Of a DNA stretch of 64,000 nt, positions 4,951 through 29,470 are shown piece after piece. The DNA is taken from positions 196,033-260,032 of the forward strand of contig CAZOVJ010000001.1 in NCBI GenBank assembly GCA_964583685.1, in the 5' to 3' direction. The stretch comes from an uncultured Gammaproteobacteria bacterium. GTDB lineage: Bacteria > Patescibacteriota > Microgenomatia > UBA8517. The position numbers were made by a program, and so were the translations under genes. The notes below the pieces were generated by a model. That model saw only the letters and a program-made list of their open reading frames with translations. It searched no databases and had not been told where the DNA came from. How positions within the stretch are numbered: position 1 is the first letter of the stretch; each line of letters starts with the position of its first letter.

Positions 4951-4989
4951 CAATAACCTAATAGTCCAGGGAGGACAGGTCCCATCCTT

Positions 4990-6875: not shown

Positions 6876-6917
6876 TTAGTGTATAATTGTACAGGAAATA
6901 AGGGTTAAGAGACTAGA

Positions 6918-6989: not shown

Positions 6990-7175
6990 CAGAAATTCAG
7001 AACGTAAAATTTTGCTGGGCGCAGGTGCGGGTTGCGCCAGTAAATAATGTGGTGGAATCGGCGAAAAATCCAGCCGTTTATTTTCTTAACAAAAAAAGAA
7101 TAACGCAAAAATTTTCGGCGCTTATTTAAATTTATATCGTGAAAAGTGAAAAGCAAGTAATAAATTGCTAAAATA

Positions 7176-7811
7176 GTGAAAATAGGAATAGAAAATCCAC
7201 TCTCATTATCTCCCGAAGATTTGGGCCAGCGAGTTCTGGATAGAGACTTTTTTGATAGGAGGACAAAGGAAGTGGCCAGAGGTTTGCTTGGAAAGATTTT
7301 GGTAAGAAAAATAGGAGACAAAATTATTGCCGGGAAAATAGTGGAAGTGGAAGCATATATAGGAGAACACGACCCCGCGGCCCACGTTTCTGCAGGGCGC
7401 ACTGGAAGAACAGAAGTCCTGTACGACGAACCAGGCAATGCATACATCTTTAAAATCCGTGGGCATCATTGTCTCAATGCAGTAGCTGAAGAAGAAAATA
7501 GTCCGGGCTGCGTTCTGATAAGGGCAATTGAGCCTATATTGGGAATCAATGAAATGAAAAAGCTCAGAGGTCTCCATGTCAAAAGAAATAGAGATTTAAC
7601 CAATGGGCCCGGGAAATTGTGTCAAGCTTTTGACATAGATATGGATTTATATGGAGCCGATCTTACTAGCGGAGATTCGTTATTATTTATTGCTGAAAAT
7701 GAGGAGGGTGAAGACTTCAAGATAGAAACTACCAAAAGAATCGGAATAACAAAAGCTTCTGATTGGGAATTACGCTATACTATAAAAGGCAATAAGTTCG
7801 TTTCAAAATGA
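7176..7811 (+). CDS. mpg: DNA-3-methyladenine glycosylase (Mpg/AAG family)
   Basis: 211 aa; 'FFDRRTKEVARGLLGKIL...GKIVEVEAYIGEHDPAAH...PGNAYI' matches methylpurine-DNA glycosylase fold. Confidence 0.8.
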   Translation: MKIGIENPLSLSPEDLGQRVLDRDFFDRRTKEVARGLLGKILVRKIGDKIIAGKIVEVEAYIGEHDPAAHVSAGRTGRTEVLYDEPGNAYIFKIRGHHCLNAVAEEENSPGCVLIRAIEPILGINEMKKLRGLHVKRNRDLTNGPGKLCQAFDIDMDLYGADLTSGDSLLFIAENEEGEDFKIETTKRIGITKASDWELRYTIKGNKFVSK

Positions 7812-11427: not shown

Positions 11428-11431
11428 AATT

Positions 11432-12322
11432 TCAAGAGCCAATTTCTACTGCAATACGAAATCCTACTTCTGGGTACGATTGGTTGGCATATTTCAAAAG
11501 GACGTGGGCAGCACCACCGTCGTATAAATTGCCAACCATGAAACGTAGAGAACTACGGACCTCATGGCGACATTCAGTATTTGTCCATTCGTAGGTGTTA
11601 GTTTTTCCCCAACCAAAACGATTGGCAAGTAGATTCCACGGCAAAATATCCAACAAGTGAACATCACCTTTTACCAATCCTACATCAGAAAGAAATTTCT
11701 GTTTGGCTTCATCAATTGCTGCCTTAATGTCGTTCCAAGAAACATTGAATCTGTCATCAATTCCCAGTCTTTTCCCAAAATTAGTTTCTTGGTATTTCTC
11801 TCCATGTGATGGCTTTTCTAATGTCTCAACCGCAAGCCACTGACCAGGCCGCCTAGGAAAGTCAGCCCAGTCCCCTTGTACCTTTTCCCAGTAGAACATT
11901 TCCAAGTTTCTGTAAATCTGGTATTTATTCTTTTCACTCTCTGACAAACTCTCAAACCGCTTCCAGTTAGGGTATTTTGCAGTAAGCCTTCTTAGATATT
12001 GCGTTAGGTTTTCTCTTCCTAATTGGTAAGGGTCAAGGTCTAAAGGAGGTAAGAAAACAAGAGTAAAGCCTTCCTCTTCTAGTTTCTGCTTTACTTCTTG
12101 GGTAATTTCAGTTGGAAGAGGAGGAATGGTAAAATTTACACCCAGTACCCGCTTCCAAGCTTCTTGTTCTACCATAATTAAGTCTGCCTCAAACTCTTTT
12201 AATTCTGGCTCTCTTGTCTCTCTTTCTGCTAAAAGCTCTTCTAACTTCCTTGAAGCAGGAATCTCTCTTTTCCCGAAAGGATCAAGTCTTGCTACTTCAT
12301 CTGGTGGTATTTTTTCAGCCAT
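11432..12322 (-). CDS. paralogue A1 of a 4-member unknown-function family (C-terminal GFR[IV]AVEIGS)
   Basis: 296 aa; shares N-terminal 'EK..PD.VA.LDPF...IPASR.LEELLA', central 'RLG..DRFNVSW' and 'WNLLANR.GWGKTN..EWTNTE' blocks with ORFs at 12335, 13031, 15664. Confidence 0.7.
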   Translation of the reverse strand: MAEKIPPDEVARLDPFGKREIPASRKLEELLAERETREPELKEFEADLIMVEQEAWKRVLGVNFTIPPLPTEITQEVKQKLEEEGFTLVFLPPLDLDPYQLGRENLTQYLRRLTAKYPNWKRFESLSESEKNKYQIYRNLEMFYWEKVQGDWADFPRRPGQWLAVETLEKPSHGEKYQETNFGKRLGIDDRFNVSWNDIKAAIDEAKQKFLSDVGLVKGDVHLLDILPWNLLANRFGWGKTNTYEWTNTECRHEVRSSLRFMVGNLYDGGAAHVLLKYANQSYPEVGFRIAVEIGS

Positions 12323-12334
12323 AAATCCAATATT

Positions 12335-13018
12335 TCAAGAACCAATTTCTACTGCAACACGAAATCCTATACTAGCAAAGGAATAATTAGATATTTTCCC
12401 AGAAACGTAGGCAGCACCACCACTCTCAAAATCACCAATAGTAAGATGCAAAAGACGTCGTGGATATCTGGTATTGGTCCATTCGGAAGAATTAGTCTTT
12501 CCCCACCCTTCGCGATTTGCCAACAAGTTCCATTCAAGTGCTTCCAGAAGTCTAATGTCTGCTTGGCCAGAAAGACCTATTTCAGAAAGAATACTTTGCT
12601 TCCTATCCTCTATTGCCCTGTTTACATCGTCCCCGGAAACATTAAATCTATCAGAAAACCCTAGTCTGTTTGTCAATGGTGAATGGGGGTATTTCCCCCC
12701 CCCAGCTCCTTTTTCCCGAAGTGCTAAAGCATCTAATTCAAGGGCTGGTATGAATCGTAACTCAAGACCCAAGTTTTTCAGATTAGCTATCACTTCAGGT
12801 GTTATGCCCTCTGGTAGACGTTTAACTTCAATCTCACTTCCCAAAACCTTTAGCCATTCATTTCTCTCGAAGGTAATGATTTCTGACATCTGGGCTTCTG
12901 GTTCTCCTGTTCCTCTTCCTGCTGCCAAAAGCTCTTCTAGCTCCCTTGAAGCAGGGATTCCTCTCACCTTGAAAGGATCAAGGCTTGCTACTTTATCTGG
13001 TGATAGTTTTTCAGTCAT
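12335..13018 (-). CDS. paralogue A2 (short form lacking the central 'AKYPNWK...QWLAVETLEKP' segment)
   Basis: 227 aa; N-terminal half almost identical to A4 and first ~30 codons identical in nucleotide sequence to A3. Confidence 0.65.
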   Translation of the reverse strand: MTEKLSPDKVASLDPFKVRGIPASRELEELLAAGRGTGEPEAQMSEIITFERNEWLKVLGSEIEVKRLPEGITPEVIANLKNLGLELRFIPALELDALALREKGAGGGKYPHSPLTNRLGFSDRFNVSGDDVNRAIEDRKQSILSEIGLSGQADIRLLEALEWNLLANREGWGKTNSSEWTNTRYPRRLLHLTIGDFESGGAAYVSGKISNYSFASIGFRVAVEIGS

Positions 13019-13030
13019 AAATCCAATATT

Positions 13031-13861
13031 TCAAGAACTAATTTCTACTGTAATGCGAAACCCAACGCGGCCTCGACAAAGCCAATGGAGAAAGGTAGTA
13101 TCTCCGATGGCAGAGCAGCCAGCGACGAGACGAGAAGGGATAGCAGATGATACACGGTGTTCTGTATTGGTCCACTCATAAGTATCGGTTCCGCTCCACC
13201 CTTCACGATTCGCCAGCAAATTCCATTCTAAAACATTCAAAAATCTAACATTACTTAGCCCCAGTCCCATATCAAGAAGGAACTTAGATTTAGCTTTCTC
13301 TATAGCCGTTTCAACGTCATACCAAGAAACATTGAACCTGTTATCAAATCCCAATCTTCGGTCAAATGCAGTTTTTTGGTATTTTTCGTCTTTATTTGGT
13401 GGTGGAAGAGTCTCAACTGCAGCCCAAGAATGGGGCAAGGTTGGAAAATTAATATAACCGTTCTTTACCTTTCTCCAAAACCATTTTCTTAAGTTTCTAC
13501 TCCAGTTAGGGTATTTTGCAGTAAGCCTTCTTAGATATTGCGTTATGCTTTCTTTTTCTAATTGGTGAGGTTCAAGGTCTAAAGATGGTAAGAAGACAAG
13601 AGTAAAGCCTTCCTCTTCTAGTCTCTGCTTTACCTCTTGGGTAATTTCAGTTGGAGGAGAAGGAATGTTCAAATCTACTCCCAGGACCCGCTTCCAAACT
13701 TCTTGCTCTACCTTAATTAAGTCTGCCTCAAACTCTCTTAATTCTAGCTCACTAGGTTTATTTTCAGCTAAAAGCTCTTCTAACTCCCTTGAAGCAGGGA
13801 TTCCTCTCACCTTGAAAGGATCAAGGCTTGCTACTTTATCTGGTGATAGTTTTTCAGTCAT
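13031..13861 (-). CDS. paralogue A3
   Basis: 276 aa; N-terminus like A2, middle like A1 ('ELREFEADLIKVEQEVWKRVLGV...TEITQEVKQ'), divergent C-terminus ending GFRITVEISS. Confidence 0.65.
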   Translation of the reverse strand: MTEKLSPDKVASLDPFKVRGIPASRELEELLAENKPSELELREFEADLIKVEQEVWKRVLGVDLNIPSPPTEITQEVKQRLEEEGFTLVFLPSLDLEPHQLEKESITQYLRRLTAKYPNWSRNLRKWFWRKVKNGYINFPTLPHSWAAVETLPPPNKDEKYQKTAFDRRLGFDNRFNVSWYDVETAIEKAKSKFLLDMGLGLSNVRFLNVLEWNLLANREGWSGTDTYEWTNTEHRVSSAIPSRLVAGCSAIGDTTFLHWLCRGRVGFRITVEISS

Positions 13862-13871
13862 ATCAATGTGA

Positions 13872-15674
13872 TTATAATTCTTTAGTAAATTCCCTCAAGA
13901 GCTCAGCTAAGATTTCTGGTAATTGATTTACTTTGTCACAAACTTTGCTCTCGGGTGAATAGGTGTTTTCAATTGCTCGAGCGTGACGAGTGATTCCAAC
14001 ACCAACAACAGTAACACCCATCTGCCGCAACTTTACTAACTCTTCTTGAACCCGATCGGGATTGCTGCTTATGCCATCAGAAAAAACAATGACTGCCTTT
14101 TTAAGTTCACCAGCAGCCAATCTCCTTTGTTTCTCTTGATCGGTATCTTCGCGGATTGCTTCTAAAGATTCATAGTCCCATGTTGCTAAACCTGGAGCGC
14201 TAGCTAGATTCTTAAAGACTTCAATTCGTGTTATTTCCTTAAGTTCAGAAGATAAAGGTTTTAACTCAATCTCAAAATTTCCAAATCCTCTGACTTCACT
14301 TTTAACCCCAAGTTCTACCATCTCTTCCCGATGTGTCTCAGCAAGTTGATGGAAATCTTTAAGTGCTTCAAGGAAAAGAATCACACAGTGACGCTCTTCG
14401 ACAAGTTTTTCTCTTGGCATTTCCATTGAACAGGAAAGATCACAAACTAGAGTAACCTCAAATCCACCTGGAGCAACTACTTCAACCGGCCTTTTTTGGT
14501 AATCCAGCCAAACAGGAGAATCGGAAATTCCCACATCGGCATCTAATTTCGCTTGAGATAAAAGTCCGGGGTCGATAACCGCTCCTTCTCTCCGGCGCGC
14601 CCTGAGCCGTCTTTTATACTCAATCCTCCGACTAATAACCTTTTCAAAAACTTTCCTTAAATATTCTATATAAGGCTTAATGGTTATATACTCTCCATAA
14701 TATCCTTGAATGTCTTCCCAGGACACTCCGTGTTCAAGCTCGTAGGCACGGCGGTCAAGCTCTTCTGGTCCGGCCCCGCGAGCAACTTGATCTTCAAATT
14801 CTCTAATTAACTCTTCTTGGAGCTCACCCGCCATAGGATGGGGCAAGCGATTTTCTTCCTTTTCATACTCTTGACGAAAGCCTTCTTCATTAGGAGCTAA
14901 TTTAAGCTTTCCTTTACTTTTCTCTACCTCTCCTTCGCCTTCTCCTCTAACTTCGACTTCCTCCCCTTCCTTTTCTTGTTTTTTCTCTCCTTGTTTTTTC
15001 CTTTCTTTAAGGTCCTCTTGGAACAGCTCTTCAAAAATTGGTTCAATGAAAAGCCTAATTGCTTTAAGCCGAATGGCAGGCTCAACCCCGGGCTGAGCAA
15101 TCAATTCAAGCAGGTTCTTTCCTTTGATATCCTTCAACCCTTCTATCTCTTGCCTTACTTGCGTATCAATTCTAACTTTTTCTTCTGGCAACATTGCCTC
15201 GCGAAGAATAGCGTGAGCGAACTGAAGATGACGGGGGTGTTGGGTGTAATCGGTTTCTGGGAAAAGACGCTGGCGATATAAATTCCTGATGGTCTCACGG
15301 TGAACGGGCGCTCTATTACCTAGAGTTCTATTAATTAAAGTGTCCTGAAGGCAATTGTGTAAGATTTGATAGCGGAATCCTAAGATCTCTCTTCGATCAA
15401 ATTCCTTTCGGTAAAGTGAGGGAGAGCGGCGGAATTCTCGTAATTCCTCAAGTTCATGAAGGGTGGCGGACATTGCTTGAGAACGACTAAATCCTTTATC
15501 AATAAAAAACTGAGGATCATAAAAAATTGTTCCGGTTTCGAGATCGAATCCCCACTGATTACCTGGCACAATTTGTAAACCAGTAACTTGAGCATAACCG
15601 GCCAGTAACGATTGTTCTTGTGCAAAAAAGTCTTCAGCTTCCTCTCTTTTTCGTCCTTTTTGTTCAGTTGACAT
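13872..15674 (-). CDS. VWA (von Willebrand factor A, MIDAS) domain protein with unknown N-terminal domain and acidic/basic low-complexity linker
   Basis: 600 aa; C-terminal 'FEVTLVCDLSCSME' (DxSxS MIDAS) and 'VIVFSDGISSNPD' VWA motifs; 11-bp overlap with upstream paralogue A4. Confidence 0.75.
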   Translation of the reverse strand: MSTEQKGRKREEAEDFFAQEQSLLAGYAQVTGLQIVPGNQWGFDLETGTIFYDPQFFIDKGFSRSQAMSATLHELEELREFRRSPSLYRKEFDRREILGFRYQILHNCLQDTLINRTLGNRAPVHRETIRNLYRQRLFPETDYTQHPRHLQFAHAILREAMLPEEKVRIDTQVRQEIEGLKDIKGKNLLELIAQPGVEPAIRLKAIRLFIEPIFEELFQEDLKERKKQGEKKQEKEGEEVEVRGEGEGEVEKSKGKLKLAPNEEGFRQEYEKEENRLPHPMAGELQEELIREFEDQVARGAGPEELDRRAYELEHGVSWEDIQGYYGEYITIKPYIEYLRKVFEKVISRRIEYKRRLRARRREGAVIDPGLLSQAKLDADVGISDSPVWLDYQKRPVEVVAPGGFEVTLVCDLSCSMEMPREKLVEERHCVILFLEALKDFHQLAETHREEMVELGVKSEVRGFGNFEIELKPLSSELKEITRIEVFKNLASAPGLATWDYESLEAIREDTDQEKQRRLAAGELKKAVIVFSDGISSNPDRVQEELVKLRQMGVTVVGVGITRHARAIENTYSPESKVCDKVNQLPEILAELLREFTKEL

Positions 15675-16554
15675 GTTTAAAAACTACTGCAACACGAAAT
15701 CCGATATTGAAATTGAAAGAGGAGTAATCAGATCTTTCCCAAATAACGTGGGCCGCACCACCGTACTTAAAATTACCAACAAAGAGATGGCAGTTGACGT
15801 CGAGCGGTCGATATTCGGTATTGGTCCATTCGGAAGAATTAGTCTTCCCCCACCCTTCACGATTTGCCAACAAATTCCATTCAAGTGCTTCCAGAAGTCT
15901 AATATCTCCATGGCCGGAAAGACCTATTTCAGAAAGAATACTTTGCTTCGTATTCCATATTGCCCTGGTTACTTCATCCCAGGAAAGGTTGAATCTGTCA
16001 GAAAATCCTAGTCTGTCTGTCAATGGTGAACGGGGAAATTCCCTTCCCCATGCTGGTTTTTCCAGTGTCTCAACAGCCAGCCATTGACCGGGAAGCTCGG
16101 GGAAATCTATATTCCCTACTTGCTTCCAAAACCAATGATGTAAATTTCTAACAACAGTGTGGTTTGATTTTTCTCTCTCATTTAGAGATTCATATGGTTT
16201 CCAGTTAGGGTACTTTTCAGCAAGTTCTTTCAAGAAAACCACAACTCCTTTTTCCCGAAGTGCTAAAGCATCTAAGTCAAGTGCTGGTATGAACCTCAAT
16301 TCAAAACCAAATCTTTCCAAATTTCTCATCACCTCTTGAATTACAAATGATGGTAAAGGTAGAACTTCAACTTCACTTCCCAAAACCTTTAGCCATTCAT
16401 TTCTCTCGAAGGTAATGATTTCTGACATCTGGGCTTCTGGTTCTCCTGTTCCTCTTCCTGCTGCTAAAAGCTCTTCTAATTCTCTTGAAGCAGGAATCCC
16501 TTTCCCAAAAGGATCAAGAAGTGCTACTTTATTTGGTGGTATTTTTTCAGTCAC
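15664..16554 (-). CDS. paralogue A4 (divergent C-terminus ...GFRVAVVFKHVN)
   Basis: 296 aa; start overlaps stop of AAA+ gene by 4 bp (ATGA), end overlaps VWA gene start. Confidence 0.65.
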   Translation of the reverse strand: MTEKIPPNKVALLDPFGKGIPASRELEELLAAGRGTGEPEAQMSEIITFERNEWLKVLGSEVEVLPLPSFVIQEVMRNLERFGFELRFIPALDLDALALREKGVVVFLKELAEKYPNWKPYESLNEREKSNHTVVRNLHHWFWKQVGNIDFPELPGQWLAVETLEKPAWGREFPRSPLTDRLGFSDRFNLSWDEVTRAIWNTKQSILSEIGLSGHGDIRLLEALEWNLLANREGWGKTNSSEWTNTEYRPLDVNCHLFVGNFKYGGAAHVIWERSDYSSFNFNIGFRVAVVFKHVN

Positions 16555-16556: not shown

Positions 16557-18305
16557 TTAGACTGTTTCCCCTCGATAGGCTAATAGTTTTTCTTCAGTTA
16601 GGCCAGGAATTCCAAGATCCTTGGCTTTTTTTTTCTTGAAAAACCCATGGAGACAGAAGATTTTAACTAAATTAGACTGGTCTTGGCGTACAGTTTGAGA
16701 TTGAATAAACTCAGAAAGAATAAAATCTTCAAGCGGACGAGTAAAGTCTTCTGCTTTCCAGGCTTTAATAATATCTAATAGATCACCAATTGAAAGAGTG
16801 GCTTTCTCCAAACTGGCCCCAATCCCTCGACTGGCATCGGCCCCTTCTCCCATAAAGTCAGTTTTCTCGCCAGTAAAGACATCTTGGACAAGTTTAGCCG
16901 CTTGACAGAAATTTTTTAAATCTTCTAAGTCCGTTTGACGATTACCTATTCTTAAAGCTCCCTGGCGATCAATTAGTCCCGCCAGTAAAATATCATGAGT
17001 CTCATTGAGAGGTAAATATGTGACTTCTGTTTGCCAATAACGGCGTAAAAAGGCAGGGTCAAGTTTTTCACGGAAATATTTGCGGGAGCGGATATTACCA
17101 GTTGCCATGACAATAAAGCCTTTAGGGATTAGAATTTCCTCATCGCCATTTTCTTGAATGGTAATCGTGTCTCCGGGACGACGAGTCAGAAGATCTTGAA
17201 TTCTACCAATAATCGAATGAGGAACAAGATCTATCTCATCAATCAGAAGAGGTATTCCTTCTCGTAAGGCTTTGGTAGCTGGTCCGTCTTCAAAATGACT
17301 CCCATTAGGTCCCAGTTGAGTTTTGCCAAGAAGATCATAATGGGTTGCATCCTCAGAACCTGAGAAGAGCTTAGGATCTGCACCAAAAAGCTTACGGGAA
17401 ACATAGCGCGCAGTTTCGGTCTTGCCTGTTCCTGTGTGTCCCCAAAGTAGGATTGGCTTACCTTGACGGACTCGGGCAGCAAGTTTGTTTACCAGCTCTT
17501 CGATTTGAGGTGTTTCCACAAATCCCTTTTTAAGTTGCCTTCTAAATTTAGTTAGCTCTCGTCGTTTTTCTTCGACTAGGAGTTCAGGGTTTTTTTCGAG
17601 AGTAATTATTCGTGCTTTTGCGGCAGCGATGCGTTTATTGTTTCGAGATAAAAACTCCTCATCAGGCTGAGAAAATCCTTTCTCCTGCCGCCTTAAAATT
17701 AATTCAGCATTTGCCTGACTTAGGCTTTCTACCCTTTTTCGCAAATACTCAATTTCTCTCGCTTTTTGAATAATCCTCACTTTCTTGGCAAATTTTTCCC
17801 GATAACGTTCAACTACCTGAGGGTAGGCAACAAGAGTCTTAATCTGAGTTTGTACTATGGTTAGTCGATCGCTTAATTCATGGACTAGCTCTTCTGGCTT
17901 CTCTCTTATCGCCTGGACAGCTCCTCCCTCAGCAATGGCTGCCAATTCTTCTTCTAAAGAACGTTTCTCCCCTTTTCTTTGTAATCGTTCCTCCTCTCTT
18001 CGTTCTGCCTCTAGATTTGCAATGGCTGCCAATTCTTCTTGTTCAATGGCTGCCAATTCTTTTTCTAAAGTAGGTTTCTCATTTTTTTCTTGTAACCCTT
18101 CCTGCTCTCTTCGTTCTACCACTAAATCTGCTTCTTGATTAAGGAGGGAGTGTAGATGAACCTGTTCCAAGGCTAAATTTGCCAGTTGGTCACAAAACTC
18201 GGCCACCTGTTCATTAGATAGCTTTTCTCTGCTAGGCACAATCTCGGAATGCTCACGGAGAGTTATATCGGCTATATTTAGAGACACAAGCTTTTTTTCA
18301 ATCAT
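16557..18305 (-). CDS. MoxR-like (AAA_5) AAA+ ATPase with ~290-aa N-terminal coiled-coil/repeat extension
   Basis: 582 aa; Walker A 'LLWGHTGTGKTE', Walker B 'LLIDEIDL', sensor 'VMATGN', Arg-finger region 'LDPAFLRR'; N-terminal heptad-rich region with internal 29-aa repeats. Confidence 0.8.
   Translation of the reverse strand: MIEKKLVSLNIADITLREHSEIVPSREKLSNEQVAEFCDQLANLALEQVHLHSLLNQEADLVVERREQEGLQEKNEKPTLEKELAAIEQEELAAIANLEAERREEERLQRKGEKRSLEEELAAIAEGGAVQAIREKPEELVHELSDRLTIVQTQIKTLVAYPQVVERYREKFAKKVRIIQKAREIEYLRKRVESLSQANAELILRRQEKGFSQPDEEFLSRNNKRIAAAKARIITLEKNPELLVEEKRRELTKFRRQLKKGFVETPQIEELVNKLAARVRQGKPILLWGHTGTGKTETARYVSRKLFGADPKLFSGSEDATHYDLLGKTQLGPNGSHFEDGPATKALREGIPLLIDEIDLVPHSIIGRIQDLLTRRPGDTITIQENGDEEILIPKGFIVMATGNIRSRKYFREKLDPAFLRRYWQTEVTYLPLNETHDILLAGLIDRQGALRIGNRQTDLEDLKNFCQAAKLVQDVFTGEKTDFMGEGADASRGIGASLEKATLSIGDLLDIIKAWKAEDFTRPLEDFILSEFIQSQTVRQDQSNLVKIFCLHGFFKKKKAKDLGIPGLTEEKLLAYRGETV
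17931..18131. repeat. intragenic ~87-bp tandem repeat (about 2.3 copies) within the AAA+ ATPase coiled-coil region
   Basis: 'GCAATGGCTGCCAATTCTTCTT...' recurs at 17931, 18019 and 18046; encodes repeated 'LE[KE]ELAAI...ERREEERLQRKGEKRS' units. Confidence 0.7.
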
Positions 18306-18447: not shown

Positions 18448-18627
18448 GTGGGTGTAGTACAATGGTAGTACACCTTCCTTCCCCGCCTGCAAGTGCTATG
18501 CGGGATTAGTTGAGTGGTATAACAGCTCCCTTCCAAGGAGCAAACACGGGTTCGATTCCCGTATCCCGCTCAGCTAGCATTGCGGGCAGGCAAGGAGGAT
18601 ATGGCAGTTCGATTCTGCTCACCCGCT
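18448..18627 (+). other. split/interrupted tRNA-Gly(TCC)-like gene: 5' half (18448-18482) and 3' half (18592-18627) separated by a 109-bp insert that contains an intact tRNA-Gly
   Basis: Outer halves pair as a full cloverleaf: acceptor GTGGGTG/CACCCGC, D-arm GTAC-AATGGTA-GTAC, anticodon stem CCTTC/GGAGG with loop CTTCC|AA, T-arm GGCAG-TTCGATT-CTGCT; break is between positions 36 and 37. Confidence 0.5.
18500..18573 (+). tRNA. tRNA-Gly(TCC) (inner, intact)
   Basis: Acceptor GCGGGAT/ATCCCGC, anticodon stem GCTCC/GGAGC loop CTTCCAA, T-arm CGGGTTCGATTCCCG. Confidence 0.8.
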
Positions 18628-18631
18628 CACC

Positions 18632-18895
18632 ATGACCAGCGCCGACGACATTCAAAAACAACATGACGTTTTAATTCCGGAGAAAGATGAAAGAACTCAG
18701 GAAGAGATAGGTGAAGAATCAGCTCTTGGTTCATCACCGGTTCCAACCTCAGATGATGATACTGGAGAAGTACTTGAAGGTGTAATTGGCAATGAACCGG
18801 AACCTGGAAAGCCGTTTACTATTGCAAAGGAAGTTGAAAAGGACGAAAAGGCACGGAGAGATGTGCCGAAAGGCTTGGACGAAGAGGGCAAGTAG
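18632..18895 (+). CDS. hypothetical acidic protein
   Basis: 87 aa ORF rich in D/E; no domain recognised. Confidence 0.35.
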   Translation: MTSADDIQKQHDVLIPEKDERTQEEIGEESALGSSPVPTSDDDTGEVLEGVIGNEPEPGKPFTIAKEVEKDEKARRDVPKGLDEEGK

Positions 18896-18912
18896 GATAT
18901 AATTAGAGACTT

Positions 18913-18985
18913 GGTGGTTGTAGCTCAATGGCAGAGCGTCCCCCTGTGGAGGGGAAGGCTGCGGGTTCGAATCCCGTCAACCACC
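18913..18985 (+). tRNA. tRNA-His(GTG) with G(-1)
   Basis: Extra 5' G, acceptor GTGGTTG/CAACCAC, anticodon stem TCCCC/GGGGA loop CTGTGGA, T-arm GCGGGTTCGAATCCCGT, discriminator C. Confidence 0.8.
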
Positions 18986-19020
18986 CATCGTGTTATAATA
19001 TGAATAAATAACTTATTAAT

Positions 19021-19491: not shown

Positions 19492-19781
19492 GTGAACTTT
19501 GTAAATTTGATTTTCTGCGGGTAAGGAGGAATACGATAGGTTTAGGTGAATCGTTGGCAATACCAATTATATTAGTATTGATCGGAGGGGCAATTTACTT
19601 AACCATAAAGGCTGGGAGACCGAATAAAACAGGTTAAGTAGAAAAGAACATAACCCCTATTAGAAAACACGTCTTGACTGAGCAAGTAAAAATCATAATT
19701 CAAGCAAGCCAAGGCGCTTTTTTATTGGAGAAAATAATTAGCTAAAAACAATTTTTCCTTATCTCCAGAAGTTATGAAATA

Positions 19782-19810
19782 AGTTCTAACGTCGTTCGGT
19801 AAGTCACCCA
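19782..19810. repeat. S-type intergenic repeat copy 1 (AGTTCTAACGTCGTTCGGTAAGTCACCC)
   Basis: Near-identical copies at 20417-20445 and 22408-22436; degenerate variants at 21781-21809 and 2767-2785; inverted partial copy at 22861-22892. Confidence 0.7.
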
Positions 19811-19844
19811 CAGAATATCCGTATTATTGGGTTTTCTTAGATAT

Positions 19845-19882
19845 AGTTCCCGACAAAGTTTACTAATCCCTGCAATTCAGCC
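19845..19882. repeat. R-type intergenic repeat copy 1 (AGTTCC[TC]GACAAAGTTTACTA[GA]CCCCTGCAATT[TC]AGC)
   Basis: Further copies at 20302-20340, 23811-23856, 24894-24932, 26919-26978, 27643-27692, 28485-28518; each lies between convergent or tandem small genes. Confidence 0.75.
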
Positions 19883-20224
19883 AAATAACTTTCTTAATAT
19901 CTTTTTAGTCCTAGTTCCTGCTCTCCAACCACGTCCAATATCAGAACCCAAATTTCCCAATTGTTCATCATCCATACGACGAATATCTCCAATTGTCACC
20001 TCTTCATGACTGCCAGGTAGCCAGTTGCAACCTCCTAAAATTCTTATAATAGCTGCTCTTTGTCCCTTTGTTAAATTTGCTTTCTCGAGTGTATTTGTAA
20101 ACTCTTCGTTATTACTTACAGATATAAGTGAAGTTTCTTCAGGAAGATTAACTCGAGGAATTCTACTCACATAATCTCTTGTACCACCAAGTGTTTCTAT
20201 AAGTCTTTCCCTTATTGTTGGCAT
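19877..20224 (-). CDS. hypothetical protein
   Basis: 115 aa ORF; no motif. Confidence 0.35.
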   Translation of the reverse strand: MPTIRERLIETLGGTRDYVSRIPRVNLPEETSLISVSNNEEFTNTLEKANLTKGQRAAIIRILGGCNWLPGSHEEVTIGDIRRMDDEQLGNLGSDIGRGWRAGTRTKKILRKLFG

Positions 20225-20301
20225 TTAATCACCCCATAAGAGCAGGTATAATCAAGCACATTATAATTGAGCGTAAGTAAATTTACAAATTCCATGGCAA
20301 T

Positions 20302-20340
20302 AGTTTTTCTGACAAAGTTTACTAGACCTTGTTTGCAACA
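20302..20340. repeat. R-type intergenic repeat copy 2
   Basis: AGTTTTTCTGACAAAGTTTACTAGACCTTG... Confidence 0.65.
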
Positions 20341-20416
20341 CGCATTGAATTACTTCTGAAATTTTCAAGAAGGAGTAGTTTCTTTAATATCTCGTAGCCT
20401 CCAGACGCCTTGTAAT

Positions 20417-20445
20417 GAGTTCTAACGTCGTTCGGTAAGTCACCC
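20417..20445. repeat. S-type intergenic repeat copy 2
   Basis: GAGTTCTAACGTCGTTCGGTAAGTCACCCC, identical core to copy 1. Confidence 0.7.
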
Positions 20446-20514
20446 CAACCGGACATAATTGAAGATACTTCATTATGCCCCATATTGTTGCGGTGTTTTG
20501 GGTTCGAGCCGATA

Positions 20515-20955: not shown

Positions 20956-21720
20956 CTACTCCTCAATCAATCCAGTACATCGCCAGTTGATTTCTGCGCT
21001 TTCATCTTCAGAAACTACACACGCTGGATTACATCCCGGTTTATCAATATCAAGATCTATCCACCAAGTTTTTGTGCTTTCGTTATAGATAGCAATATCT
21101 TTCAAGATGCCATTGCTGACACATTCGCTCGTTTCTGCGATTGACCTCGCTTTCTTTTCAGACATTGGGGTAGACTCAGAAACAACTAGTTCTTCAGATA
21201 ATGTGGAACAAATAAATCCAAGATCTCTACTTTCTTTTCTTGAATCATCACGAAGATATAATTCACACCCAATGTTGCCGAGCCTTAAAATACTTCTTTG
21301 TGTCCCCACCGGCCCACTTCCGACATTATACATATCATGCTCAAAACCTAACTCTCTTAAATAGATTTGGATTTCGCCGTGTTTATTTTTGAGTTCCATT
21401 TCATTGGTACCCAATCTTTCACCTATTATGTAGCCTTTAGCATCTAGTTTCAGCGTATCATTTTCTGTATTCCAAAGAATTGTGGCTCTAGAGTATTGAC
21501 TTCCCTGCCAATCAACAATTTTGTCTACACCATATAAAACAGTATCAATAGTGATTTCACCCTTATTTACTGGGGTTTCAGCATCTTTTTCCAAGCCCAC
21601 TTCCTGAGGAGTAGGAGTAGGTAAAGCTGTTTTATTCTCTTCAGAAGAACTTCTAATTGCTAGAAATGCTCCTCCTGCAATGATAACCAAGGCTATTCCT
21701 ATCAGCAAAGGCTTTTTCAT
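20956..21720 (-). CDS. hypothetical secreted protein (signal peptide)
   Basis: 254 aa; 'MKKPLLIGIALVIIAGGAFLAI' signal/anchor, Cys-containing C-terminal region. Confidence 0.5.
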   Translation of the reverse strand: MKKPLLIGIALVIIAGGAFLAIRSSSEENKTALPTPTPQEVGLEKDAETPVNKGEITIDTVLYGVDKIVDWQGSQYSRATILWNTENDTLKLDAKGYIIGERLGTNEMELKNKHGEIQIYLRELGFEHDMYNVGSGPVGTQRSILRLGNIGCELYLRDDSRKESRDLGFICSTLSEELVVSESTPMSEKKARSIAETSECVSNGILKDIAIYNESTKTWWIDLDIDKPGCNPACVVSEDESAEINWRCTGLIEE

Positions 21721-21824
21721 AATTGTCCAGATGCATTATAACACTTAAAAATTCTTTTTCTTTACTTTCTTGAAGGTAATAGGTTCGAACATCGTCTACT
21801 AGTCCACCCTCAAGCGTACATAAA

Positions 21825-21920
21825 CTGTTCTTTATACCCCGGATAAGCTTCTTGAAGTTTTATGAACAAGGCTAAATGTGGTTCAAAAGAAAAGTCGTTA
21901 TCCACCTATGGTATTTGATA
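21825..21920. repeat. ~95-bp direct repeat, copy 1 (second copy 22990-23085)
   Basis: '...TTATGAACAAGGCTAAATGTGGTTCAAAAGAAAAGT[CT]GTTATCCACC[TC]AT...' ~85% identical between copies. Confidence 0.7.
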
Positions 21921-21996
21921 GGCTTAATTATGTTCACCAAAGCTGTTTATGCAGGTTTATAATTATCTGCATTTATTCTGATATAATATTTTCACA

Positions 21997-22320
21997 ATGT
22001 CGCCAGAGAACGATGAAATTGAAGGAATAATTCCAGAAGCAGAAGAGTTTGTTAATGAGGTAAATCAAAGAAAAGATTTAGAAAATGATCCTATTTTTTC
22101 AGAACAGGAAGGTGGGGAGTATGGTCATGCTGTTCGTGGTCTTGCCCATTCAGCCATGCTATGTGCACTTAACCGGCATTCACCAGAATATCAGAGAAAT
22201 ATGTTAAAACAAAGAGTACAGGAAATTGTAACAAAGTTTGGCCCAAATATTATTCCCCTACTTCGTGATGAATTGAAGCTTGCACTATCTGAAGATGATC
22301 TGACACCAAAGGATACCTAG
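21997..22320 (+). CDS. hypothetical protein
   Basis: 107 aa ORF. Confidence 0.4.
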   Translation: MSPENDEIEGIIPEAEEFVNEVNQRKDLENDPIFSEQEGGEYGHAVRGLAHSAMLCALNRHSPEYQRNMLKQRVQEIVTKFGPNIIPLLRDELKLALSEDDLTPKDT

Positions 22321-22407
22321 ATCATTACATCACAAAGTTTAGTAGTTAATAATTGAAAAGATATTTTGATAACAAGATATGTTCCTTCTCCCCTGAAGTA
22401 ATGTAAT

Positions 22408-22436
22408 GAGTTCTAACGTCGTTCGGTAGACCACCC
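22408..22436. repeat. S-type intergenic repeat copy 3
   Basis: GAGTTCTAACGTCGTTCGGTAGACCACCCC. Confidence 0.65.
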
Positions 22437-22603
22437 CAGATTTTTAGCCTCGGAAATTATATAAAAGTATAGCAACCCTCTACCGGATTATAAACTTGTG
22501 TCGCCTGTTTGGTAAATGCTCTGTTACACTACTCACCTGAAAGGGTATAATACTAAGACGGAAAGGAGGTGCATACAGATTTAAGCTATAAATCTATAAT
22601 AAT

Positions 22604-22804
22604 ATGAACGGAAAAGTAAAAACAAAAACAGACAAAGGATTTGGATTCATTTCTCGAGAAGGAGAAGAAAAGGATCTTTTTTTCCACTCTAATGATTTGG
22701 AGGGTGTTTCTTTTGATGAACTTCAAGAAGGAGCAGAAGTTACGTTTGATGTAGAACAGGGCGAAAAAGGCCCAAGTGCAAAAAAGGTAAAACTTGCGAA
22801 ATAA
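22604..22804 (+). CDS. cold-shock protein (CspA family, OB-fold)
   Basis: 66 aa; 'MNGKVKTKTDKGFGFISREGEEKDLFFH' RNP1/RNP2 cold-shock motifs. Confidence 0.85.
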   Translation: MNGKVKTKTDKGFGFISREGEEKDLFFHSNDLEGVSFDELQEGAEVTFDVEQGEKGPSAKKVKLAK

Positions 22805-22989
22805 CATTCTTACAAAATAAAGGGTTCCAACAAGGTACAAATAAATTCACGCTGGAGAGAGGTGGGTTATTGTTTTAGTTAGAACGATCCCAAAACATAC
22901 GCTCTCCTTCAGGAATATTGTAAATACTGAATGAAATCGAAGAACTCAGAATTTACAATTAACTAGCCCTTACTCAAACACAAGCAAAC

Positions 22990-23085
22990 TGCTCTTTATA
23001 CTCAGGATATGCCTCTTGGAGTTTCATGAACAAGGCTAAATGTGGTTCAAAAGAAAAGTTGTTATCCACCCATAGTATTTTGATG
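22990..23085. repeat. ~95-bp direct repeat, copy 2
   Basis: see copy 1 at 21825-21920. Confidence 0.7.
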
Positions 23086-23113
23086 TTAAAGAAACAATTA
23101 ACCTCGTTTCTTT

Positions 23114-23155
23114 AGAGGTTCGATTCCCTCCGCCCCTGCAATTTAGCCTCAAGAA
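23114..23155 (+). other. tRNA 3'-end-like remnant (T-arm GAGGTTCGATTCCCTCC + acceptor-like GCCCCTGCA) fused to the 3' half of an R repeat
   Basis: Canonical GGTTCGATTCC T-loop with no matching 5' tRNA half upstream; continues into '...CCCCTGCAATTTAGCCTCAAGAAG' shared with R repeats. Confidence 0.5.
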
Positions 23156-23775
23156 GCCCCAAGAGTATATTCTTTATATGGTTTATGGTTTTTCCACAAC
23201 CATATTGAAGCGACTGGTAATTTTTTGTTAGTCAATTTATCTTTTTCTATCACCTTCCAGGCTTTTTCAATATTTGCTGGACTAACATCATTATAAACAA
23301 GAGTGAAGTGTAATACATCCCTTTTTTCTTTATGTATTGGCGAAAACTCCCCCAGCCTCTCTTTAATTCTCAAAACAAGATTGTCGGCTTCATTGTTTTG
23401 GGCAAATGCAACAAAAATAGTAAAATCCTCTCCATAATCCCCCAACCTGGTTGAATTTAACACAAACGGCTTTGTAGCAGATGCAATTTCTTCCATTCGC
23501 TGTAGCACTTTCATTTCATCTCTCTCTTCTATCATTATTTTTTGTCCAAGTGCTATGTGTGGAAAGATCTCTGTTTCAACAGTCTCTCCGTCTCCTGGTA
23601 TAAAAAGTTTTCGTGGGTTCATTTGCTCTCTCACTCTCAAAACACGGTACACCACTTTATCTGTTTCTTTTCCATAAACCTCCTTAGCAAGCAGAGAGAG
23701 TTGCTCTTTTAGAGAATCTTCCATTTCACCAGAAAGGTGAATCTCTACACGATATTCAATTTCTTTTCCAGACAT
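23149..23775 (-). CDS. 2H phosphoesterase superfamily protein (LigT/2'-5' RNA ligase-like)
   Basis: 208 aa; two H-x-[TS]-x motifs ('HIAL', 'HFTL') spaced as in LigT. Confidence 0.55.
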   Translation of the reverse strand: MSGKEIEYRVEIHLSGEMEDSLKEQLSLLAKEVYGKETDKVVYRVLRVREQMNPRKLFIPGDGETVETEIFPHIALGQKIMIEERDEMKVLQRMEEIASATKPFVLNSTRLGDYGEDFTIFVAFAQNNEADNLVLRIKERLGEFSPIHKEKRDVLHFTLVYNDVSPANIEKAWKVIEKDKLTNKKLPVASIWLWKNHKPYKEYTLGAS

Positions 23776-23810
23776 AGTTATATTTTACATTAACCTGTGG
23801 ATATTCGTAT

Positions 23811-23856
23811 CTGAAGTAGTTCCTGACAAAGTTCACCAGCCCTTACTACACAGCTT
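23811..23856. repeat. R-type intergenic repeat copy 3
   Basis: CTGAAGTAGTTCCTGACAAAGTTCACCAGCCCTTACTAC... Confidence 0.65.
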
Positions 23857-23863
23857 TGAAGTG

Positions 23864-24379: not shown

Positions 24380-24892
24380 GTGACCACTAAGGCCTGCAAA
24401 TCAGCTTCAGATGATATAATTGACACTATGTACTCTGTTGGAGTTTTTGCGATTATTCTGAACGAGAAACAACAAATCCTGCTCTCTCACAGAAAAGATA
24501 TGGATGTTTGGAATCTGCCTGGAGGAGGAATGGAACCTGGCGAAGCACCACAAGGTGCACTAAAAAGAGAAATAAAAGAAGAAACAGGATTGGAGGTTAT
24601 TATTAAACATCTAGTAGCCTTAAACCCAAAACCACAAAAAAGTGAGTTAGTTTTAACGTTCGAATGTAAAGTTACACGAGGAAAAATCAAAGAAACAGAC
24701 GAGGCTGATAAACACGAATGGTTCAATTTAGACAACTTGCCACTAAATACCGTCCCCAAACAGGTGGAGAGAATATATCACTTTTTCAAAATGCCCGGAG
24801 AAGTATTTCTAGATGTTCAAAATCAGCCGAGCACTAAGGTGTTACTAGCAGAAGGGAAATTAGAAAAATTTAATAAGAAATTACTTAAATAA
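24380..24892 (+). CDS. NUDIX hydrolase
   Basis: 170 aa; Nudix box 'GGGMEPGEAPQGALKREIKEETGL'. Confidence 0.8.
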   Translation: MTTKACKSASDDIIDTMYSVGVFAIILNEKQQILLSHRKDMDVWNLPGGGMEPGEAPQGALKREIKEETGLEVIIKHLVALNPKPQKSELVLTFECKVTRGKIKETDEADKHEWFNLDNLPLNTVPKQVERIYHFFKMPGEVFLDVQNQPSTKVLLAEGKLEKFNKKLLK

Positions 24893-24893
24893 A

Positions 24894-24932
24894 AGTTCCT
24901 GACAAAGTTTACTAGCCCCTGCTTACAACATC
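24894..24932. repeat. R-type intergenic repeat copy 4
   Basis: AGTTCCTGACAAAGTTTACTAGCCCCTGCTTACAAC. Confidence 0.7.
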
Positions 24933-26818: not shown

Positions 26819-26918
26819 AAAATCAATCATTGTCTGCTTCACAAATACCCCAAACTTTCCTAAGACATCTTTCATTATCAAAAGGCATAACTATGTCCCG
26901 AGAATTCTGTCGGCAATA

Positions 26919-26978
26919 GGTTCCAACAAAGTTTACCAGCCCCTGCAATTTAGCTTCAAGAAGTCTCTGTCAGGAATC
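26919..26978. repeat. R-type intergenic repeat copy 5 (extended, with inverted terminal half CTGTCAGGAATC)
   Basis: GGTTCCAACAAAGTTTACCAGCCCCTGCAATTTAGCTTCAAGAAGTCTCTGTCAGGAATC; ends are imperfect inverted repeats. Confidence 0.7.
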
Positions 26979-27660
26979 TTTCAATATGCTTTATAACTAT
27001 ATTGCATTCTTTTTGAGAGTGTCTAAAGTCATGTCCCATATTGGGCTGCCTGATAACATATGGATTATTTGCATTGGTAACTATTTTTTCAGTTTCTTTG
27101 GGCGGAACACTTTTGTCTTCAAGCGCAATAAATATCATAATTGATTTGTGAATTTTTTTAACTTCTTCCATTGCTGAAAATTGCATTCCATCTTCCGCAA
27201 AGGTATAAGGTATATCAAATACTCTAAACTTTTTTGGATTATTAGGTAAATCTCTTTCTGAATGCCGAAATTCCTTTCCTTCCCAATTTAAAGATGAGCC
27301 AATTCTGTCTGCCACCGAACAAAGCGAAACAATTTTTGTAACTCCCTTAATTCTATTACCAGCGATAATTGCTACAAAAGCACCTAAACTATGCCCAATT
27401 AAAACTACTTCTTCTAAATCCTTATTTTTGTAAACATTAACTCTATCTGCAATTTGATGAATATAATTTGTGATTGTGTAGTTCTTCACATTACCTGTTT
27501 TCCATAAATTACAGGGGTCAAGTCTTTCAACCGTATACCCTAATTCTTTAAGTCTTTTCTCAAAAGTCCTTATATGAAGATAGTCGGGTGAATCCAAATA
27601 TCCTGGGAGTAATATCGCCAATTTCATAATAAGAATTATAACAGAAGTAGTTCCTAACAA
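26956..27660 (-). CDS. alpha/beta-fold hydrolase
   Basis: 234 aa; nucleophile elbow 'GHSLGA'. Confidence 0.6.
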   Translation of the reverse strand: MLGTTSVIILIMKLAILLPGYLDSPDYLHIRTFEKRLKELGYTVERLDPCNLWKTGNVKNYTITNYIHQIADRVNVYKNKDLEEVVLIGHSLGAFVAIIAGNRIKGVTKIVSLCSVADRIGSSLNWEGKEFRHSERDLPNNPKKFRVFDIPYTFAEDGMQFSAMEEVKKIHKSIMIFIALEDKSVPPKETEKIVTNANNPYVIRQPNMGHDFRHSQKECNIVIKHIERFLTETS

Positions 27661-27692
27661 AGTTTACCAGTCCCTGCAATTTAGCTTCAGAA
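27643..27692. repeat. R-type intergenic repeat copy 6
   Basis: CAGAAGTAGTTCCTAACAAAGTTTACCAGTCCCTGCAATTTAGCTTCAG. Confidence 0.7.
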
Positions 27693-28429: not shown

Positions 28430-28484
28430 ATACGCACATTATAGCAAGGGAATAAAGTTTTTGTGACTTCAAGCTCTTGAAACC

Positions 28485-28518
28485 AGTTCCTGACAAAGTT
28501 TACTAGCTACTGCAAATA
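28485..28518. repeat. R-type intergenic repeat copy 7
   Basis: AGTTCCTGACAAAGTTTACTAGCTACTGCAAATAC. Confidence 0.7.
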
Positions 28519-28522
28519 CAGA

Positions 28523-29470
28523 TCATATTATAGTACCCCTTGAGAAAACTGAAGAACGATTTGTAGGCTTTCCTTCTCCTGGCGTGTAGCTACAATAAGA
28601 TGCGACGGCCATAAATTGATGCATGAGATTTCTTCGCGCTTCTGGAAGTTCACCTATCATTTTTTTAAAACGATGTATGTACTCTGCAAGTGTTTCTGGA
28701 CTAAAGGAGTCAGCAATTTGATATGGTTTCATTGAATGAATAACATCGTTAGAAGATATGGCCCCTGAAAATTGTTGCATTTCATTAGGTTCTTCTATAA
28801 GAAGTGCATTGAAAAGGTTAGGTAATTGTCCAAAGTCGGAAACGCTATCAACCATATCATCAGCCATTTGCAGGCCAAGTATCTCATTCCTTGCCACCCC
28901 AATTATTTTTTCAATATCTTCATCCTTTGCGCCTGCAGATATTCCGATAACACGAATTATCATTTCTACCATGTCACCACTAGTTTGTTGCCTGTAGTTT
29001 AATACAGAATCATATGAGGTTTTAGAAGGCTTAAAATCATGAATAAAATTAGAGTGTGCATGAATTGCTTCTTTTTTATATCCAACAACTAATTTCCCCA
29101 GATCCTCTTTCGTCTCTTGAGAAAGGCCACTGCCATTAATTGTATTTTCAACCTTTTGAAAACGATGTTTGTCAGATACTCCTTTATGATGGATTTCCTC
29201 TAATTTAAAGCTGGATCCTGGCGGTTGAGAATCAAGATATGAATCAGCCCAAAACCAATAATCTATTACTTCTAAGACTATTCTGTTCACTCCGATTCTC
29301 TCACTTTCTTTTGGACCCAATTCTAAAAAACGAGAATAAGCTTTAATAAAAAATGTATTTGTTATGCTCGGTGGCTCTTTTCCTTCTAATCCAATTTTCC
29401 CCTTAATTGCCAGCGCCGCTAGTCTTAAAAATGCGCGAGATGTGCCCAGTATTCTTTCATGCTTTAACAT
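28523..29470 (-). CDS. hypothetical protein (possible isoprenoid-synthase-like, single 'DDMVD' Asp-rich motif)
   Basis: 315 aa; 'LGLQMADDMVD' resembles second Asp-rich motif of trans-prenyltransferases but first motif not found. Confidence 0.3.
   Translation of the reverse strand: MLKHERILGTSRAFLRLAALAIKGKIGLEGKEPPSITNTFFIKAYSRFLELGPKESERIGVNRIVLEVIDYWFWADSYLDSQPPGSSFKLEEIHHKGVSDKHRFQKVENTINGSGLSQETKEDLGKLVVGYKKEAIHAHSNFIHDFKPSKTSYDSVLNYRQQTSGDMVEMIIRVIGISAGAKDEDIEKIIGVARNEILGLQMADDMVDSVSDFGQLPNLFNALLIEEPNEMQQFSGAISSNDVIHSMKPYQIADSFSPETLAEYIHRFKKMIGELPEARRNLMHQFMAVASYCSYTPGEGKPTNRSSVFSRGTII

Follow-up and report, generated by a model that had tools for sequence, protein, structure and literature searches.

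Two direct repeats of roughly 100 nt lie little more than a kilobase apart in the window, the 64,000-nucleotide stretch of contig CAZOVJ010000001.1 (positions 196,033 to 260,032) analyzed here. They flank a 107-aa hypothetical open reading frame (ORF) and a gene for a cold-shock protein (csp), and a tRNA 3'-end-like fragment stands beside the second copy. The original prediction took the repeats for attL/attR-like attachment (att) sites around one inserted module. Are they the two ends of a single element, and, if they are not, what put them there? Our analysis indicates that the repeats, called DR here, are members of a dispersed family of junction elements of ~100-130 nt with two sister families, R (~45 nt) and D8 (~55-87 nt), and that DR, R and D8 together punctuate a polar array of small gene cassettes which extends over ~19.7-28.5 kb of the window. 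This array has a polarity and an anchor, tRNA-His, whose end and flank are copied in its junctions; its units occur elsewhere with other neighbors, and homology between contigs breaks at the junctions.

Junction elements and their tRNA-His anchor

Searching the fetched loci with nhmmer identified 128 copies of R, 126 of DR and 118 of D8 in 81 metagenomic contigs. The figure for DR is a lower bound (at least 126 copies in 81 contigs). Within each contig the junction elements are co-oriented, without exception (372/372). A 19-base DR pattern (GAACCACATTTAGCNTTGTT) was also present in at least 120 metagenomic contigs, and ~95 of its matches are copies of the element, none of which has a long upstream ORF. 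Another set of ~40 matches falls in full-length PrmC/HemK genes of unrelated bacteria (L018, L022, L026, L041, L045, L087 and others). These genes share the EPHLALF codons by coincidence, as part of a motif FEPHLALFV.D.NPL.FY, and pattern-based counts of the element are therefore inflated. A genome scan at species level gave just one contig, of 5 kb and with doubtful binning.

The window holds seven co-oriented copies of R, all within 19.8-28.5 kb. A repeat search placed them on the minus strand at 19840-19886, 20301-20345, 23813-23860, 24890-24932, 26913-26959, 27644-27691 and 28480-28526, the last of these being the array's last in the window. Using nhmmer, we found minus-strand D8 elements at 19756-19811, with R 28 nt further on, and at 20392-20448; their core is identical (19/19) to that of a third D8 at 22383-22438. 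The elements follow a fixed order on the minus strand of the window: R is followed after ~29 nt by D8 or DR, DR after ~0 nt by R or D8, and D8 after ~47 nt by R. R-type sites thus lie on both sides of DR, which behaves as a mini-unit of the array. Median gaps between junction elements are 400-800 nt. The spacer from R to D8 or DR has two variants, ATCCCAATAATACGG... and AAAACACGAGGCTAATTGAGGC..., and composite junctions (D8-spacer-R-like-DR and DR-D8-R) keep the same order across genomes (L128, 1-900; L058, 4343-4468; L014, 11115-11339).

The gene at which the array is anchored, tRNA-His(GTG), was identified by ARAGORN and Rfam at 18914-18986 on the plus strand. Arrays begin just downstream of this gene in the window and in contigs L015, L029, L066, L006, L053, L072 and L033, and the relative orientation of gene and array is constant in all six R-bearing contigs measured (6/6). 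The gene usually lies within a conserved Leu-Pro-Gly-His tRNA block. In L066 the native tRNA-His ends ...GTCAGTCACCCCA (also given as ...GTCACCCCA) and is followed by GGATCT and then by TTAGCCTCA, while in L006 it ends ...GCCACCCCA and is followed by TCCTTA and then by TTTAGCCTA. A full R follows the native gene after 28 nt (CCGTATTATTGGGAT...) in L015 and after 38 nt in L029. The prediction had linked the R repeat to a tRNA 3' end, and the related contigs bear this out for the end together with its flank, since the right half of R follows the native tRNA-His in L066.

The left halves of the junctions resemble the end of the same gene. D8 and DR end ...CCACCC(C)A like tRNA-His, and R ends ...GCCCCTGCA. 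Read on the tRNA strand, D8 ends in GTAAGTCACCCCA and DR in TCGTTATCCACCC, which agree with tRNA-His over its final 13 nt in 12/13 and 11/13 positions. What comes after them is either a spacer plus R, as at the native gene, or ...TTAGCCTC directly; the tRNA-like ends of D8 and DR thus stand where tRNA-His stands relative to spacer and R. The D8 at 19756-19811 gives an example from the window, its flank CCGTATTATTGGG plus R being arranged as after the real tRNA-His in L015. In the array contigs TTAGCCTC itself is strongly biased in strand, with 46 occurrences in the tRNA orientation vs 8 in the opposite one and ~5 expected by chance. The element that precedes it is D8 in 12 cases, DR in 10, an R left half in six and a T arm in three. 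We conclude that a junction consists of a left half ending like the 3' end of a tRNA acceptor and a right half with TTAGCCTC, and that the two together copy the native tRNA-His end and flank.

A second type of tRNA is represented next to DR copy 2. Here a fragment of tRNA-Trp type, comprising T arm and acceptor strand, occupies the position of an R left half at 23115-23140 on the plus strand, after DR and a spacer and before a right half. The fragment had been predicted at 23114-23139 as a tRNA 3' end lacking a 5' partner. With a shift of one base, to the string GAGGTTCGATTCCCTCCGCCCCTGCA at 23115-23140, this description holds, and a tRNA-Trp(CCA) gene in an IMG/VR contig has the same 3' end (24/24 nt). 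The resemblance to tRNAs is significant: in local alignments with 41 tRNAs of the lineage the fragment scores 30, compared to 17.6 +/- 2.2 (maximum 27) for shuffles. Its T stem is imperfect and no 5' half was found. ARAGORN called no tRNA at 23115-23140, Rfam returned no tRNA match there even at E<=10, and an intact tRNA ending in the same string, which the prediction had proposed to look for, is missing from the ARAGORN calls in the window. The stretch is best read as a tRNA 3' fragment and not as a gene. The ending ...CGCCCCT-G-CCA is also that of E. coli tRNA-Trp.

As predicted, the fragment runs directly into half of an R repeat, namely the right half GCAATTTAGCCTCA at 23138-23151 (+), whose final three nucleotides serve as the stop codon for the next gene, a 2H phosphoesterase. 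A tRNA-Trp-type T-arm/acceptor fragment replaces the R left half in L058 and L066 as well, with diverged sequence. Because it is kept at this position in both contigs, it is an old variant of the site and not a recent accident. The IMG/VR contig with the matching tRNA-Trp, L132 (IMGVR_UViG_3300010429_000387), is a very large viral contig of 407 kb in which ARAGORN predicts 35 tRNA genes within 7.7 kb (positions 1-7688), the tRNA-Trp whose 3' end equals the window fragment among them.

Exchange of cassettes and growth of the array

The units between the junctions are cassettes of 0.2-2 kb that carry one or two genes in either orientation, have promoters of their own, start with a right half and end with a left half. 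In the window the array genes are small, mutually unrelated and found on both strands with repeats between them; they encode the cold-shock protein, the 2H phosphoesterase, PNPOx, NUDIX and alpha/beta hydrolase proteins, an S51 peptidase, a winged-helix regulator and several hypothetical proteins. Some genes end inside a junction: the last codons of a 219-aa gene (..SRG*) are read from an R core (24912-24922), and a 115-aa gene stops inside R (19877-19881). Across 126 ORFs from 59 array contigs, Pfam matches point to content of the same accessory type, including NUDIX proteins, hydrolases, methyltransferases and S51 peptidase.

Two cassettes of the window recur elsewhere. The 2H gene (23149-23775, -; Pfam 2_5_RNA_ligase2) lies in a cassette at 23138-23792 that is 84% identical to positions 3620-4277 of L058, where its neighbors differ. 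The homology starts exactly at the right half, GCAAxTTAGCCTCA, next to left halves that are not the same in the two contigs (a T arm in the window, D8 in L058), and it stops at a point ~35 nt upstream of the gene's start. The element that comes next is R in the window but D8 plus DR in L058. The csp cassette is shared with L129, L117 and L128 at 79-84% identity. In L128 a DR end (...TTATCCACCC) is followed directly by the csp promoter and a second DR comes after csp, and in L129 csp is followed by DR. A tblastn search of the fetched loci found no homologues of the window's other cassette proteins, and, apart from the shared units, gene content is almost unique to each genome. Several shared units have R cores on both sides, for example one of 456 nt that is 95% identical between L014 and L066. 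Of the 112 places where homology between contigs ends internally, 42% are no more than 25 nt from a junction element, compared to 13% of random positions, and the median distance from homology end to junction element is 47 nt vs 238 nt.

We consider serial integration at a tRNA-type att site to be the most likely origin of the array, with a probability of roughly 0.6. In this model, the array would have grown by repeated site-specific integration of modules that lack an integrase of their own, each integration leaving one more copy of the att site. On the element side the arms would be D8 and DR, and on the flank side the arm would be spacer plus R, or TTAGCCTC. The recombinase would act in trans, encoded somewhere else in the genome or by a helper element, because none is linked to the array. 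Homologous recombination between the repeated junctions may add shuffling. In this account the description, a family of junctions in a cassette array anchored at tRNA-His, stands on much firmer ground than the enzymology.

Several observations weigh against serial integration. The Pfam scan, which covered ~57 of the 69 called ORFs in the window, found no recombinase or transposase domain there, and no recombinase appears among the Pfam families matched by at least two of the 126 ORFs from the array contigs, a count in which families with a single member are not visible. The R, DR and D8 patterns were not found in IMG/VR, which leaves no known donor element with an attP; a donor phage or plasmid was set aside as a candidate on the same result. 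Apart from the last ~13 nt, DR, D8 and the R left half resemble 41 tRNAs no more than shuffles do. Since similarity deeper into the tRNA is not significant, we do not call these elements tRNA pseudogenes, and whole tRNA-His or tRNA-Trp pseudogenes were rejected as their identity, since what they share with these tRNAs is confined to the terminal ~13 nt and the positional context. No circular or empty-site form was seen, and the strain's other assemblies (L001-L005, L017) run collinear with the window; the window sequence is also present on a 29.9-kb JGI contig. Finally, the enrichment of breakpoints near junctions is equally expected if the junction repeats are merely substrates for homologous recombination, and the coding signature described below is moderate, most copies having no obvious start codon or ribosome-binding site.

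Pure homologous recombination is the main rival. Here R, D8 and DR would have some other function, as small ORFs or protein-binding sites, and would simply offer 45-130 nt of homology for swaps, much as homology-based swapping has been proposed for the repeated regulatory cassettes called PeSL in T4-type phages. In length the junction elements suffice for RecA-dependent exchange, shared cassettes keep both of their flanking R cores, no recombinase was found in the Pfam scans, and the coding-like signature means that the junction families may have a function of their own. However, homology alone does not predict the strict co-orientation of 372 elements, the constant anchoring at the tRNA-His 3' end, the left halves that look like tRNA 3' ends or the 46 to 8 bias of TTAGCCTC. 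It also leaves unaccounted for the 2H cassette, whose homology sets in precisely at the right half, next to left halves of two different types. We therefore regard homologous recombination as the sole source of the array as improbable, if still the strongest competitor of serial integration.

What the junctions encode and what the repeats bracket

On the strand antisense to the tRNA, each of the three families bears a signature resembling that of coding sequence. In the ORF frame of DR the ratio of nonsynonymous to synonymous polymorphism (pN/pS) is 0.45 with 8 stops in 76 copies, compared to 0.65-1.26 and 88-296 stops in the other frames, and entropy by codon position is 0.72, 0.62 and 1.02. 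The corresponding pN/pS is 0.43 for R, in the frame GLVNFVRN, and 0.65 for D8, in the frame GDLPNDVRTH. The minus-strand peptide of DR reads VDNDFSFEPHLALFMKLQEAYPEYKxQFSYA* and occurs in 10 small called ORFs, in nine of which it forms the C-terminal ~31 residues after unrelated sequence. In some copies the arms, joined as R-spacer-DR in L071 and L020 or R-spacer-D8 in L076, form one open frame of ~55 codons. The commonest R variant contains GAGG-N5-TTG, which we read from the sequence as a candidate ribosome-binding site and start. These features suggest that a small ORF may span the att site in its joined form (R-spacer-core-DR or R-spacer-core-D8).

Could DR, and D8 with it, simply be real genes for small proteins of ~31-55 aa that travel as common cassettes, the two window copies being paralogous mini-genes? 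Nearly all of the 76 DR copies keep the frame open, with the lowered pN/pS just given, the position of the stop codon is conserved, P0010 starts with ATG at the conserved V, and the frame runs from R through DR in L071 and L020. An intact 53-aa ORF with an ATG start at 20325-20483 (-) contains the D8 element at 20392-20448 (MGHNEVSSIMSGWGDLPNDVRTHYKASGG...) and is a called gene in public assemblies; an identical protein is encoded on a 484,806-bp NCBI contig, and a 41-aa homologue (74% identity) on another contig. Nevertheless, no conserved ribosome-binding site or promoter precedes the GTG, the upstream sequence is unrelated between copies and often has in-frame stops, the frame from R to DR is broken in many copies, and there is no Pfam match. 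Looking for genes that end in the DR or D8 peptide turned up only short ORFs. We think it unlikely that mini-genes explain the repeats. The idea is compatible with serial integration in any case, as it concerns the product that a junction encodes and not how the array formed.

We can now return to the two repeats of the window and to the proposal that they are the attL/attR pair, or the target-site duplication, of one 1.1-kb module holding the 107-aa gene and csp and excisable as a circle. The repeats themselves, predicted near 21825-21920 and 22990-23085, are real. Our repeat search of the window gave a pair of 119 nt at 83% identity and a spacing of 1164 nt: copy 1 at 21798-21916 and copy 2 at 22962-23080, both on the minus strand with 31-codon minus-strand ORFs at 21810-21905 and 22974-23069, copy 1 ending ...GTCGTTATCCACC on the plus strand. 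Identity rises to 89.5% in a 95-nt core (21822-21916 and 22986-23080), and 34 nt are the same in both copies (21862-21895 and 23026-23059). This similarity is far above chance. The repeats are direct, they flank the 107-aa ORF (21997-22320, +) and csp (22604-22804, +; Pfam CSD, E=7e-21) as had been noted, and the tRNA 3' fragment lies beside copy 2, all of which would fit a single module.

The relatives of the two copies tell against it. Over a 100-nt core the copies are 85% alike, each has its closest relatives in other contigs (90-93% identity), and its partner in the window ranks only 14 or 30 of 80 among those relatives. The pair is therefore no duplication made in place. The same element recurs in at least 126 copies, often two or more per contig. 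Both repeats also stand in composite surroundings. A diverged D8-like element (21719-21808, -; tblastn with the D8 peptide, E=8e-5) abuts copy 1, a DR-0-D8 juxtaposition found again in other contigs, and directly before copy 2 on the plus strand lies a diverged R-like element (22943-22973, -) that is homologous to an R-like piece preceding DR in L128.

Additionally, the bracketed segment is divided by a junction of its own. At 22383-22451 (-), a D8 (22383-22438) is fused to the right half TTAGCCTC (22444-22451), and this marks the boundary between the cassette of the 107-aa gene, with its promoter region from ~21917, and the csp cassette, whose body spans 22508-22860 (+) with a promoter GTTACA-17-TATAAT at 22523-22551. 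The 1.1 kb is two cassettes, [107-aa gene + D8/TTAGCCTC] and [csp + R-like junction], because L128 has DR-csp-DR with neither the 107-aa gene nor its D8 junction. A Logan contig, L002, equals window positions 21862-23055 and so opens with the 34-nt core of copy 1, at its first base, and stops 30 nt into the core of copy 2. We take the Logan assembly to use k=31, for which a 30-nt overlap (k-1) is the break expected at a repeat, and we infer that the overlap marks such a break and is not evidence for a circle. A single excisable module is thus very unlikely. The wider idea behind it fared better: the repeats do belong to an att-like recombination landscape linked to tRNA 3' ends, and the material between them is modular in related genomes.

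Duplication of a promoter or regulatory region, the fallback that had been offered, can hardly be credited: copy 1 does lie between divergent genes, upstream of the 107-aa ORF, but copy 2 lies between the convergent 3' ends of csp and the 2H gene, the cassettes' own promoters are outside the repeats, no sigma-70-like site falls in DR or R, and the region is not enriched in such sites (33 vs 29 +/- 5 in shuffles).

Other identities were tried for the elements and rejected. DR and R showed neither coincidence with terminators or promoters nor enrichment of them. An origin of DR from PrmC/HemK was dismissed, as the similarity stops at EPHLALF, a string that is the antisense reading of a GGTTC-containing segment of DR, and comes with no Pfam match. 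The repeats are not template and variable repeats of a diversity-generating retroelement, for the 14 mismatches in the ORF region include every type of change and are not adenine-specific, and Pfam found no reverse transcriptase domain. A structured or tRNA-like RNA received no support from RNAalifold on 73 DR copies (-0.4 and -1.1 kcal/mol, a trivial 5-bp helix only) or from Rfam, which gave no match. Miniature inverted-repeat transposable elements and insertion sequences were discounted because DR, R and D8 lack inverted repeats at their ends and the Pfam scan gave no transposase. Integron attC sites were excluded by folding the seven R sites as single-stranded DNA on both strands (z -0.95 to +1.3) and by the lack of a local inverted repeat at R or DR.

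The surroundings of the array contain further repeats and tRNA-linked differences. The window is part of a bacterial chromosome, with genes for DnaE, GatCAB, enolase, PPDK, Obg, LexA, CTP synthase, RuvC and ribosomal protein L19 and 13 tRNAs. Proteins that it encodes are also on record for the 484,806-bp NCBI contig. After tRNA-Gly(TCC) at 18500-18571 comes a second tRNA 3'-end-like fragment, GGCAGTTCGATTCTGCTCACCCGCTCACCA (18600-18632), and then an 87-aa ORF (18632-18895). As tRNA-Gly and tRNA-His are only 12 nt apart in L066, the interval 18572-18913 resembles a further small insertion at the 3' end of a tRNA, to judge from this arrangement. Further upstream, at 11429-16504, a series of paralogous minus-strand genes (296, 227, 276 and 254 aa) starts 2 nt after tRNA-Pro and is followed by VWA and AAA_5 genes. 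DNA repeats D1-D7, D11, D14 and D17 (65-92%) connect these paralogues, and those that were scanned had no Pfam match. In L015 and L066 tRNA-Pro and tRNA-Gly are 4-208 nt apart, so the window has ~7 kb extra. Inside a gene for a 582-aa AAA_5 ATPase (16557-18305, -), an 88-nt direct repeat at 17933-18131 (83% identical, spacing 111 nt) duplicates a Glu/Leu/Ala-rich segment (EELAAI...).

Relation to known systems

How do these arrays compare with systems that are already described? The closest precedent is the ssrA genomic islands of Dehalococcoides, which are inserted in tandem at the transfer-messenger RNA (tmRNA) gene (PMC3146451, PMC2764846). There, many co-oriented 20-bp copies of the gene's 3' end lie downstream with extra conserved bases beside them, the cargo is strain-specific, and some units without integration genes have been read as cis-mobilisable elements (PMC3146451). 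Both systems form a hypervariable region in a streamlined genome that starts at the 3' end of a small RNA gene, and in both there are co-oriented direct repeats of that end with extra conserved nucleotides, strain-specific cargo and units devoid of integration genes. The arrays studied here begin at a tRNA 3' end in a fixed orientation, and their boundary repeats hold the tRNA 3' end and flank, the former over its last ~13 nt. A recombinase beside the att site in some units, as expected of tRNA/tmRNA islands, was found neither in the window nor among the families matched by at least two of the 126 ORFs.

The differences are also clear. The Dehalococcoides islands are roughly of phage-genome length, whereas the units here measure 0.2-2 kb with one or two genes, and no integration module was seen in the 81 contigs within the scope of the Pfam scan. 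Instead of a simple 20-bp copy of a gene end, there are three long repeat families that have no more than ~8-13 nt in common with tRNA-His, show a coding signature on the antisense strand and involve a second tRNA type (Trp). We think there is a better than even chance that the arrays are tRNA-anchored serial integration at cassette scale, a variant of the known tRNA/tmRNA-island theme.

Integron cassette arrays, and the clusters of attC sites lacking integron-integrases (CALINs), are likewise polar and built on co-oriented attC sites. The arrays described here resemble them in having polar, co-oriented sites spaced 0.3-2 kb apart between cassettes of one or two small accessory genes, in gene content that differs almost wholly between genomes, and in cassettes that start with one part of the site and end with the other. 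Unlike attC, the sites are not imperfect palindromes, do not fold into hairpins and have no RYYYAAC...GTTRRRY pair. The cassettes have promoters of their own and lie in both orientations, and the array is anchored at a tRNA gene and not at attI. Neither intI nor a tyrosine recombinase is present in the scanned ORFs of the window, in which the end of the array is tRNA-His.

A third parallel is offered by the SSV-type integrases of archaeal viruses, whose attP lies inside a gene that is split on integration. In the arrays, too, an apparent coding sequence runs through the att core, antisense to the tRNA-derived sequence, and is continuous only where the arms are joined (L071, L020). Here, in contrast, the ORF has ~55 codons and no similarity to recombinases, no integrase halves flank the cassettes, and the host is a bacterium. 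Searches of the literature on the candidate phyla radiation (CPR)/Patescibacteria and of the wider searchable literature found no prior description of such arrays, which is a weak negative.

For the interpretation of similar loci, the window is a caution that direct repeats flanking genes do not alone make an attL/attR pair. R, D8, DR and the strand-specific TTAGCCTC would provide a sequence signature with which such arrays can be found in metagenomes. The weight of the finding depends on the recombinase and on direct evidence of mobility. As a more tentative proposal, which we would sooner doubt than adopt in full, an uncultured small-genome lineage, probably of CPR/Patescibacteria type to judge by gene content and contig size, might practice an integron-like acquisition of cassettes. 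Mini-cassettes bearing promoters would be captured serially at a tRNA-His-derived site, whose left half mimics the 3' end of a His- or Trp-type tRNA and whose right half is TTAGCCTC, by a recombinase encoded elsewhere, with an ORF of ~55 codons assembled only across joined sites. If true, these genomes would keep a dedicated, polar "gene shelf" beside tRNA-His, stocked with single-gene modules that differ almost completely from one genome to another. This would amount to an integron-like cassette economy built from tRNA-type att sites, with no hairpin sites or linked integrase, and it would add to the known means by which very small genomes take up and shuffle accessory genes.

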